Assembly: GCF_045037415.1 (NCBI RefSeq)
Contig: NZ_CP173438.1
DNA: 64,000 bases
Source of the DNA: Escherichia coli
GTDB lineage: Bacteria > Pseudomonadota > Gammaproteobacteria > Enterobacterales > Enterobacteriaceae
Strand: one strand, 5' to 3'
Positions within the stretch are counted from its first letter, which is position 1. Each line of letters starts with the position of its first letter. Shown one piece after another: positions 38,601 through 41,600 of the stretch. A program made the position numbers.

Positions 38601-41600
38601 ATGTAACAATGCCTGCGCTTCTGTCATAAATTTGTACTTATAACGCATGGCAACCTGGATCATCTCTACATCAGCCCAGGCCTTATGGACGGCATCGTCC
38701 AGCTCAGGAGAAGTCCAGTTATTCCGTTCAGCGTTGTAATAGGGCTCTGTGAAGATCAGATCTTCCGTAATTTTGCACAGCTCATGATTCAACGCGAACT
38801 CGGCAGTAAGCGCTTTTTTCTGTTCTGCTGACATGCCAATGTCAGACGTATTGAAGAGAGTCTGTGCTAAAAATCTGCCGATATCTTCAGCTAGTTTAGG
38901 GAATTTTTTACCGTTAATCAGTTCCTTACGCAGAATCACGTGAGGAGTCAGATACTCCATGGCAAACAGCGCCATTTCCGGGTCGTAAAAATAGACCTGC
39001 GGAATCAGTGTGTGACCCGCGTACTTGGCTTCCTGACATAAGACGTTGTACTCAAAGCCCGCACGGCTCAGAGATAAAGGCCATCCTTCGCCCCCTGCAC
39101 GAAGCCAGGGCAGAGCTTGTTTTACAATGATGGTTTTATGTGTCCCCTCAACGATAAACACCATGTTCAGGTTTCCGTCCCCCACTTCTGAAACTTTCCA
39201 CTCTTCAGGTAACCCTCCCGGTTCGCATGAAGGGGTCAGTCTGGACGAGAGATAACCCGGCAGCGTGTCACATGTCAGCGGCTTGTAACCTGATGGAATT
39301 GAATCCGTCATAACAGTTCTCCTTGTCTACACAGAATGATAATCAACTTGTCATGTGACAACTATACATTATCAAATGTAAAATTATTTGTGACACATGT
39401 AGATTTTTTGAACTGTATAATATTAAAAATGATGTCGTATGGAGTCATGATCTTTACAGGAATCAGCAGAGGAAAACATCTATTATTACCATGTAATTCA
39501 TGTTGTTATGTCGCAACAATAGTACTGCACGGGGAATTATTACGGGCAAACTTAGGCGAAAGGAAGTACTGAAGTGACAGAATAAATCACACTTTTTGTA
39601 CATATGTACTTTTCTATTGTCTTTTGTTGTGGAAACAAATAGTGTTTGTCATGCCGATGCTAATAGACAGATAGATTCGAGGGCCAACAGCCCCATCATC
39701 ATGATGGAGCAACAGAGGTGAGTCTAACGTTTCCGCACTTCTTATCGATCGGCACTAACGATCAATATCGATAAACTGATCTATCAAAACGATTATCTTT
39801 CTTGCAACCTGCCTGGTTATCCTTCTCTTACATTGCTCGCAGAAAAGCCCTTTTATTACGGTTAGTTATCTAGCTGAGACTTGCTACGCCCATTTTCCAT
39901 GTACCCCAAATCACGAGGTCACAAAGGCGCGGAAAGATGAAGAGATGTGCACGTTGCAACAAAAAAAGAAGCGTCCTTGAACAGAGGCTCTCACTCGATA
40001 AAGAATTCTGCGACGAGTGCTTATTCGATATCGATGAGGAAATCAGGGAAAGAAGGATTATCACGATCAGACGCCTCAAAGATGACAACGAAAGAAAATC
40101 GTAGCTCAATATGAAAAATGGAATCGATGTCAGCGTCATTATCCCTGCTTACAACGCCGCTGAAACCAGCGTTAGTTTGGTTACTAAAATCCTCAGTGAA
40201 CCCCACTTGGCTATTGAACTTATCATTGTCGATGACGGTTCTACTGATGAAACTGGCAACGTTCTTCGTCAAATCCACGATGATCGGCTCATTCTCATTG
40301 AGCAGGCCAATCAAGGTGTCTATGCCGCCCGAAATGCTGCTCTAGCCTTGCACCAAGGAGAATAGGTTATATTCCTTGATGCGGACGACGATATAGCAGA
40401 TGGGTTCATAGAAAAAAGATGGCAGGCAGTTAGTACGTCGCAAGCCGACGTCATGATCTTTAATGGCTGGCATTCCTGTGCTGACCAACATCGAAGAGCG
40501 GTTCACAAAAAGCAGCCCTATGGTACGCCTCTGTCAGGTTATTAATGGATTAGACACTGTGTTACACACCGCGAATGGCCGCATTATCTGTGGCTGCAGA
40601 TGGTCAGGCCATCCTATGTCAGGCAGCATTCACTGCGCTTCCAGTCCGGCAGGAGCCATAAAGACATTTTTTAAACGGTTCATCTTGCAGCGAGCAATGG
40701 TTGATTCTGTACATTGGATATAAAGGACTATATCTATATCAACAATAAGGCCTCTATCACACATCGGCCGGATTACTACGTTGTTCGTGCTATAAACTAT
40801 GTTGAAGTGATCGCGAAAATCATCCAAGTAGCGGAACAAGAACAAAACAAAAAATAAAGGTATTTTTGTACCGGCATGCGCTGGTAGAGGCACGTCATTT
40901 TTTGGGACTCTACCGCAATCGCGTTGGGGATAAATCGGGCATGAAGGACTGCTTCAAAGCGAACATATTCGCAGCCCATTTATTCAGAGGTATCAGCAGT
41001 TTTAGCGATGTGTTTTTCTTTATTAAGCTGCTGGGCAAGCTATTCTGATAAGTTGTGCGTTGCTACACGACACCAGCGCACAGCTTAATTTCACGCTTTC
41101 TGACTAAATTGTTCAGGCCTTTTCTATAGGTGCAAACACAACTCCCCGTACTTTCCTCTTCCAACTCAAAATCATCGCACCTTGCTGACCCAAGAAGGGA
41201 GCATACCCTGCACTAGTATCCGCACAGCTAATACTCTATTGATACCAACAACGCTTCAGCACAACAAAGTAACTCGATAATCACAACTCAAAGTGAAGAT
41301 GCCAAAAACTCGTTTGAGAGCAATAAATTCAATAACATGAAAAAAATGTATTTTGCATTGAAAATCTTACTTATTGCGCTTGGCTACAATTGCATGCTTG
41401 GTAATATAGATTATAAAACACCAGACTAGCTGCCTGGTAAGTAATGTAATAGCAGAGGAAATATCACGATGGATCTTGTAGATAGTGTCGAAGCAGGTAA
41501 GCTGACGATCAGTGAATTGATTGATGCCCTGGCGAAAGATAAAAATTACTCAGCTTCCAAGTGGGATCAGCGATACCGTGAATTTACGACCTTGCTACAA

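Follow-up and report, generated by a model that had tools for sequence, protein, structure and literature searches.

The stretch of DNA considered here, referred to as the window, is a 64-kb segment of the leuX-island region of Escherichia coli (contig NZ_CP173438.1), and the element in question is a cluster of three GATC sites positioned between the divergent mtnK-mtnA-ald2 operon on its left and, on its right, a gene for a 55-amino-acid (aa) protein followed by a decayed family-2 glycosyltransferase (GT2) gene, with mcrB beginning at 41469. The locus is identical (100%) in Nissle 1917 and in many other strains. A sequence-only reading of the window had suggested that the GATC sites might be the relic of a Dam-dependent phase-variable locus, and this suggestion is supported by comparative evidence, namely a conserved triad, a fit to the OxyR consensus, and E. 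coli copies that are all dead. The 53-bp conserved element at 39745-39797 is probably the intact relic operator of a family of operons predicted to be under OxyR and Dam control (Table 1). The operator opens a two-gene operon that encodes a 55-aa zinc-ribbon protein and then the GT2, a portable unit found on genomic islands of many Enterobacterales.

Table 1. Features of the GT2 module and its operator in the window (positions are those of the 64-kb stretch)
Feature	Coordinates	Strand	Description
Left boundary of GT2 module	39725-39746		BLASTN matches to loci L004-L008 begin at 39725-39733; mtnK-associated DNA lies further left
GATC triad (GATC-1, GATC-2, GATC-3)	39747-39750, 39760-39763, 39778-39781		Presumed Dam targets; invariant or nearly invariant across the 26 unique homologues
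Putative OxyR half-site A	39748-39762		ATCGGCACTAACGAT; 7/10 match to consensus; bracketed by GATC-1 and GATC-2
Putative OxyR half-site B	39779-39793		ATCTATCAAAACGAT; 7/10 match to consensus; starts within GATC-3; start-to-start distance from A 31 bp
Conserved ATTATC, candidate -10	39792-39797		Rightward GATTAT (39791-39796) or leftward GATAAT; from conservation and a position weight matrix scan
Leader	39798-39936	+	Conserved in the window-like subfamily only; random-level identity between subfamilies
55-aa zinc-ribbon gene	39937-40104	+	Intact; CxxC-x17-CxxC; first gene of the operon
GT2 pseudogene	40111-41048	+	Four nonsense codons and one 1-bp deletion relative to the intact homologue

The three GATC sites span 35 bp (39747-39781) with spacings of 13 and 18 bp, and all of them fall within the 53-bp conserved element. 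The sequence-only reading was right that a triad exists, but the range that it gave, 39737-39771, is shifted to the left by about 10 bp and does not take in the third site. The likeness that it drew to the agn43 triad, also present in the window (GATC starts at 62451, 62464 and 62483; spacings of 13 and 19 bp), holds, as the runs CGATCG and TAACGATC.AT are common to the + strands of both. No other GATC triad in the window spans 45 bp or less. When 39312-41468 was compared with the window by self-BLAST, no match was returned, and the two triad regions have no detectable homology outside the operator, to which the agn43 resemblance is confined.

An alignment scan for the GT2, limited to one genome per species, yielded 36 loci, 28 of which include the small open reading frame (ORF). 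The full triad, at a spacing of exactly 13/18 bp, is found 165-253 bp upstream of the ATG codon in 24 of the 28 loci with the small ORF, and in none of six GT2 loci that lack it. The GATC sites are thus conserved in homologous regions, and intact homologues of the GT2 preceded by the same triad do exist, with some 185 bp between the triad and the same small ORF. The loci are distributed among some 11 genera (Enterobacter, Buttiauxella, Erwinia, Rahnella, Yokenella, Kosakonia, Phytobacter, Trabulsiella, Kluyvera, Citrobacter and Lelliottia), to which the database names of GT2 and small-ORF homologues add Klebsiella, Serratia and Yersinia. Multiple modules can be present in a single genome, as evidenced by Trabulsiella odontotermitis 01 (three), Yokenella regensburgei (two) and Enterobacter sp. 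CC120223-11 (two). Within the 450 kb of loci that were fetched, a 13/18-type pattern occurs elsewhere only at agn43.

A small number of loci depart from this arrangement. In the case of L016 (at ~3559) and L026 (at ~3662), GATC-1 alone has been lost, by one base change each, and in L025 (2760-2830) all of the GATCs are gone and a degenerate remnant, CTGTAAAATCAATTATAG, is left. Such operator variants may represent locked or re-tuned switches. A different departure is seen in L037, from a Lelliottia sp., where four GATCs are spaced at 13/18/13 bp (1360-1407) and both half-sites are bracketed by GATC pairs, as they are in the gtr operons; this four-GATC operator precedes a 422-aa GTPase-like gene and is separated by 2.4 kb from the small ORF downstream.

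The modules fall into three sequence subfamilies. Between subfamilies the operator has an ungapped identity of 0.65, and both flanks have a gapped identity of 0.55-0.57, as compared with 0.58 for random sequence; by this measure, the operator is the sole non-coding element that is conserved across subfamilies. An information-content profile was compiled from 26 unique sequences, numbered from the G of GATC-1 as position 0. Information content is about zero to the left of position -2, and the conserved positions are GATCG (0 to +4), A (+10), CGATC (+12 to +16), A (+28), GATCT (+31 to +35), AA (+40/+41) and ATTATC (+45 to +50), with an invariant G at +4 that lengthens GATC-1 to GATCG. The window operator keeps every base that is invariant in the family. 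Viral contigs that were scanned for the operator pattern gave two matches only, both inside coding sequence and chance-like, and the module does not appear to be phage-borne.

The conserved positions outside the GATCs are suggestive of OxyR binding. Matches were scored against a half-site consensus, ATAGnTnnnAnCTAT, with 10 specified positions, in the same register as in agn43 and gtr (ATCG-N7-CGAT), which places the start of half-site A at +1 and that of half-site B at +32. The consensus base is the majority base at 9 of the 11 specified non-GATC positions. The A residues at +10, +41 and +45 are invariant, C at +12 and T at +46 are present in 25 of the 26 sequences, and T at +6 is conserved, and all of these are consensus positions. 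Scores for half-site A range from 6 to 8 of 10 across the family. For the L031 subfamily the two half-sites score 8/10 (A) and 7/10 (B), and for the L018 subfamily 8/10 and 5/10. By comparison, both half-sites score 8/10 in agn43, 7/10 in phage Mu mom, and 8/10 in a pair of triads from strain CFT073 discussed below. The start-to-start spacing of the half-sites is 31 bp in every family member, the same as in Mu mom and the CFT073 triads, and 32 bp in agn43. No third half-site is conserved among the 26 sequences, consistent with a single operator and no alternative OxyR site. In a scan of the window for paired half-sites, covering about 128,000 combinations of position and spacing, agn43 ranked first with a score of 16, and the candidate operator, with 14, was tied for second with two others.

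The left boundary of the module indicates which genes the operator belongs to. The window aligns with contigs that carry an intact GT2 from 39725 rightward, at about 90% identity, beginning 22 bp to the left of GATC-1, and to the left of 39725 the window and the other module loci are unrelated. On the contigs with an intact GT2, genes for AlpA and a Zn_ribbon_11 protein come first, followed after an intergenic region by GT2, McrB and McrC. The left neighbours of the module vary in identity, strand and distance between lineages, which rules out a consistent leftward gene. Since homology to the GT2 module begins at 39725, the triad belongs to the GT2 unit, forming the 5' end of the 55-aa ORF and GT2 rather than of mtnK, which it abuts by happenstance.

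The 55-aa Cys-rich ORF that was noted downstream of the triad in the sequence-only reading is indeed present. It is conserved in 27 loci, the four Cys residues being invariant and about 13 other positions invariant or nearly so, and substitutions by codon position (3874/2761/7842) display a third-position bias; the small ORF is thus a genuine coding gene under purifying selection. It is unannotated in the RefSeq records of E. coli that were examined, and its database homologues, where called at all, are named 'hypothetical', meaning that a conserved zinc-ribbon gene has been skipped by annotation pipelines. The small protein has no match to an NCBIfam or Pfam family. An AlphaFold model (predicted local distance difference test score of 73) consists of a zinc knuckle followed by a long helix, and a Foldseek search of this protein against the PDB returned nothing below E = 1.

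The downstream GT2 gene is decayed, as had been proposed, but the 'several frameshifts' ascribed to it were incorrect. Relative to the intact homologue it is interrupted by four in-frame nonsense codons, W85* (40363), E145* (40543), W188* (40672) and R198* (40702), and by one frameshift only, a 1-bp deletion in an A-run at ~40848, and it continues well past position 40723, where it had been thought to end. RefSeq annotates only an 84-aa N-terminal fragment (WP_000788354.1). Intact homologues of 312 aa, with 68-90% identity, are found in Enterobacter, Klebsiella, Citrobacter, Serratia, Yersinia and others, and carry PF00535 (an N-terminal GT-A domain with the DxD motif), PF13641 and PF10111; the window GT2 still reads ...IIVDDGSTDE... 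and ...FLDADDD..., but is interrupted. The best NCBIfam model for the GT2s of the module is PRK10073, presumably the LPS glycosyltransferase YibD/WaaH, with scores of 124-147 bits (166 bits for a tdh-adjacent relative). A YibD/WaaH assignment was rejected, as the scores of the module GT2s are far below the curated cut-off of 423 bits.

The cargo of the module is not always limited to two genes. In Trabulsiella (L024, 3062-3955; also L025 and L027), the zinc-ribbon ORF and the GT2 are separated by a gene whose product resembles Mig-14, a protein of antimicrobial-peptide resistance, with a score of 167 bits against a cut-off of 515 bits. The presence of this Mig-14-like gene would fit a role of the module in the envelope or lipopolysaccharide (LPS).

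With three GATCs in one operator, the architecture of the module operator appears closest to those of agn43 and Mu mom, and not to those of gtr or opvAB. At agn43, three GATCs are likewise contained within one OxyR tetramer site that forms a single operator, and likewise a pair of GATCs 13 bp apart brackets one half-site as ATCG-N7-CGAT while the third GATC opens the second half-site. The runs CGATCG and TAACGATC(G/A)AT are shared, and the L017 version of the module operator is the same as agn43 at 17 of 20 positions. The differences are a GATC spacing of 13/19 bp with half-sites 32 bp apart in agn43, as opposed to 13/18 and 31 bp in the module, and a reversed order of half-sites. In agn43 the single-GATC half-site is over the -10 (TAGAAT) and the double-GATC half-site is toward the gene. 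The agn43 cargo is an autotransporter adhesin, whereas that of the module is a glycosyltransferase. The agn43 operator and promoter in the window are themselves intact, with half-sites at 62452-62466 and 62484-62498 that are the top-scoring pair in the window, and, on the - strand, a -10 TAGAAT at 62492-62497 and a -35 TTGCGT at 62515-62520.

Phage Mu mom, which is controlled by Dam and OxyR (PMC2909390), has the same geometry as the module operator, with GATCs spaced at 18/13 bp and half-sites 31 bp apart, and its central run CCGATCGATT(T) is common to the L018 and L031 subfamilies. In Mu, some 50 bp separate the operator from the promoter downstream, and the half-site with two GATCs is the one closest to the gene. 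The cargo is a phage DNA-modification gene, and mom is not known to phase-vary (PMC2909390).

The logic of the module is the same as that of the gtrABC operons of Salmonella and P22, horizontally acquired glycosyltransferase operons for phase-variable O-antigen glucosylation that are often present in multiple copies behind an OxyR/Dam element. The gtr operons differ in having four GATCs in two pairs, three half-sites, and two alternative OxyR positions that are activating or repressing; each GATC pair is 13 bp apart within one OxyR half-site, at -110/-97 and -46/-33 (PMC2909390). The gtr genes encode a flippase (gtrA), a bactoprenol glucosyltransferase (gtrB) and GtrC, whereas the module is without gtrA or gtrC and has the zinc-ribbon ORF in front. 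The order of zinc-ribbon gene and GT2, with an optional Mig-14-like gene, behind one three-GATC operator rules out assignment of the module as a gtrABC operon. Salmonella opvAB, which governs O-antigen chain length, has GATC-containing OxyR half-sites that score 7-8/10 and an LPS-related, phase-variable output (PMC4856963), but differs in having four half-sites and four GATCs over about 130 bp, 32-bp pairs, OxyR as an activator, and unrelated genes. A switch of the pap type, where Lrp and Dam act at two GATC boxes 102 bp apart together with a PapI-like co-regulator (PMC2909390), was ruled out by the 13/18-bp spacing and the lack of a second box.

Further examples of the 13/18 geometry can be found in published methylation data. 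For strain CFT073, only 18 GATC sites are given in S5 Table of Blow et al. 2016 as having neither strand methylated. Six of these belong to the two agn43 copies (19/13), and another six form two 13/18 triads, at 268724/737/755 and 2358454/472/485 (NC_004431, 268724-268758 and 2358454-2358488; L047 3225-3259 and L048 3955-3989 among the fetched loci). Both triads are 62-96 bp upstream of paralogous dynamin-family/RdcB operons, the operon at 2.36 Mb being followed by a gene for a patatin-like phospholipase. The triad at 2358454 includes the run TAACGATCAATAT, identical to that of the window operator, and the other copy reads TAACGATCGATAT. The CFT073 operons differ from the module in their cargo, and in a promoter and orientation that copy agn43 (TTGCGT-17-TAGAAT-4-CGATCG). 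In Blow et al. 2016 the cluster is listed by flanking genes only, one as 'upstream of TonB dependent receptor' in the summary table. The two triads look like further uncharacterised OxyR/Dam-controlled operons, and they indicate that the 31-bp (13/18) geometry is protected from Dam methylation in vivo. A 31-bp distance between half-sites seems to recur among operators that escape methylation in vivo, and not to be a mere quirk of Mu. No methylome was found for a strain with the module: the methylome paper on EC958 (ST131) gives no list of single sites, CFT073 is without the mtnK/GT2 module, and its methylation data concern sites of the same geometry elsewhere rather than the element studied here. 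For Klebsiella sp. BRL6-2, no triad is included in the Blow et al. 2016 table, and in the part of the Enterobacter aerogenes FGI35 list that was covered, the single entry is the gut site.

A consensus scan and a scan with a position weight matrix identified three competing candidate -10 elements on two strands, at +44 (rightward), +50 (leftward) and +71, with similar scores. A promoter at the operator is favoured because the conserved block ends in a -10-like (G/A)ATTAT. An embedded promoter, and hence repression, is also favoured because the variable distance from operator to ORF is out of helical phase and the left neighbours are inconsistent. Our best guess is that the promoter overlaps the operator and that OxyR represses as it does at agn43, with the methylated state being ON. 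An Rfam scan of 39200-41500 at E <= 1 found no match, and the leader was thus ruled out as a known riboswitch or small RNA.

In the mechanism that we propose, two OxyR half-sites 31 bp apart, which together contain three Dam sites, would form the operator. Binding of OxyR to the unmethylated operator would shield the three GATCs from Dam and set one expression state, whereas methylation of all three GATCs would abolish OxyR binding, such that the opposite state is inherited. With the promoter overlapping the operator, OxyR would act as a repressor, and the methylated state would be ON, as for agn43. The predicted output is a phase-variable modification of an envelope or LPS glycan. In this E. 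coli, where operator and small ORF are intact and the GT2 is a pseudogene, the unit is an evolutionary relic that happens to adjoin the mtnK operon.

Other explanations of the triad can be considered, the simplest being that three GATCs have come together by chance. With its 221 GATCs placed at random, the window would be expected to contain about 1.2 triads no longer than 36 bp, and thus GATC clustering alone is not significant. A triad with spacings of 13 and 18 or 19 bp, however, has an expectation of 0.0097 per window (P = 5e-5 for two such triads), and the exact spacing is held in the 24 of 28 loci, from about 11 genera, with flanks that are randomised. A chance cluster has next to no probability, and is already refuted by this conservation. 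Hardly more credible is the proposal of the sequence-only reading that the triad could instead regulate the divergent mtnK-mtnA-ald2 operon. The triad is 436-470 bp upstream of the mtnK ATG in this E. coli, and the leftward -10-like GATAAT (39797-39792) adjoins it in a layout reminiscent of agn43, yet by homology the triad is part of the GT2 module, and the genes to its left differ in every lineage. In addition, in ATCC 25922, whose intergenic region of 799 bp is the same, primer extension showed transcription of mtnK to start 72 and 188/218 bp before the gene and detected no start site further up, though 381-709 bp upstream was probed (PMC12632272). In the same strain 126 bp upstream of mtnK is enough for regulation, and only about 250 bp of upstream sequence is common to all strains with the pathway (PMC12632272). 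Regulation of mtnK by the triad was rejected on the basis of the module boundary and the published start sites (PMC12632272).

Two remaining explanations are more difficult to set aside, although each is improbable. In one, the operator is controlled by Dam and OxyR but provides conditional or graded repression, and not a heritable ON/OFF switch. This would be in keeping with a geometry equal to that of Mu mom, and with a single operator that has neither an alternative OxyR site nor a conserved third half-site. Against this, agn43 also has a single operator and yet phase-varies (PMC2909390), the two triads in CFT073 that have this geometry stay unmethylated stably, and a surface-type glycosyltransferase found in multiple copies on mobile islands is typical of phase-variable functions. 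In the other, to which we would assign a similarly low likelihood, the operator is that of another protein (a LysR-type regulator, an island-encoded factor or the zinc-ribbon protein itself, which is small and without known function), and the GATCs are by-products of CGATCG palindromes or act via SeqA or direct methylation of the promoter. A number of observations favour such a protein and weigh against OxyR. The half-site spacing of 31 bp is 1 bp short of the 32 bp of agn43 and opvAB, which has been called canonical for reduced OxyR (PMC4856963), and half-site B scores just 4-5/10 in the Kosakonia/Enterobacter-type subfamily. A point against OxyR only is that the window has two unrelated sites, at 42658 and 13585, with the same total score of 14/20, probably by chance. 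The ATCG-N7-CGAT register is also a generic LysR-type T-N11-A box, which another regulator of this type could bind. Relative to its operon, the operator is inverted as compared with those of agn43, Mu mom and the CFT073 operons, with the double-GATC half-site being farther from the gene. The promoter assignment is doubtful as well, given that there are three candidate -10s on two strands and that the proposed -35 is poorly conserved, and the choice between repression and activation by OxyR is therefore a guess. What argues for OxyR, nonetheless, is that the window operator has TAACGATCAATAT in common with the CFT073 triad at 2358454, that the L031 subfamily has CGATCGATTTAAT in common with Mu mom, and that L017 approaches agn43 as closely as described above. 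Moreover, the conserved non-GATC positions coincide with positions of the OxyR consensus, and each of the twelve GATC bases varies little or not at all, a constraint that a simple palindrome would not call for.

With control by OxyR and Dam being the preferred explanation, the question arises as to what remains of the unit in E. coli. The element is present in 1,091 of 5,426 complete E. coli genomes. About 434 of these, of the Nissle type, have a full copy that is at least 99.9% identical to the window and includes the same pseudogene. In sequence type (ST) 131, an insertion sequence, typically ISEc52, is located near 40020, within the small ORF. In ST95 and relatives, such as avian pathogenic E. 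coli (APEC) O1:K1, 39725-40050 alone is kept, fused to a truncated cbtA, by a deletion of about 15 kb that has removed the GT2, mcrBC and restriction-modification genes and brought mtnK beside a segment of the agn43 island. Near and distant BLASTN searches of the 5,426 genomes found no intact copy of the GT2, only the same pseudogene locus. The unit is dead wherever it is found in E. coli, whether as a GT2 pseudogene, cut by an insertion sequence, or truncated by deletion, and 'relic' is an apt word for this reason.

A more far-reaching scenario, and a very unlikely one, is that the operator and zinc-ribbon gene constitute a portable epigenetic switch cassette in which the 55-aa protein is a PapI-like co-factor or feedback element, and that agn43, Mu mom and the dynamin/RdcB/patatin operons are, with the cassette, members of a wider island-borne OxyR/Dam regulon. 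In strains such as Nissle 1917 and ATCC 25922, the cassette would still be switching and McrBC restriction would be phase-variable. The latter is possible because a simple scan of 41049-41468, between the GT2 pseudogene and mcrB, detected no intrinsic terminator on the + strand, and read-through into mcrBC from a promoter linked to the operator is conceivable. GT2 and McrBC are neighbours only in the window, L004-L008 and L011.

No prior description of this operon family was found in the literature searched, which discusses four OxyR/Dam-controlled loci only (agn43, gtr, opvAB and Mu mom). If confirmed, the module would represent a fifth OxyR/Dam family, present in at least eleven genera including Enterobacter, Citrobacter and Kluyvera. 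Phase-variable glycosylation of the envelope, if true, could affect phage adsorption, resistance to serum and peptides, and serotyping.

There is also a consequence for mtnK. A 2025 study of the dihydroxyacetone phosphate shunt takes the 799-bp interval from mtnK to WP_000788354 as an ORF-free 5' untranslated region (PMC12632272), a description that overlooks the 55-aa gene. Judged by the module boundary, this '5'-UTR' of extraintestinal pathogenic strains (39312-40110) is chimeric, with 39312-39724 being the part that travels with mtnK, and the distal 386 bp (39725-40110) containing the small ORF of the dead operon together with its leader and operator. The distal half of the region is thus the head of a dead and unrelated operon.

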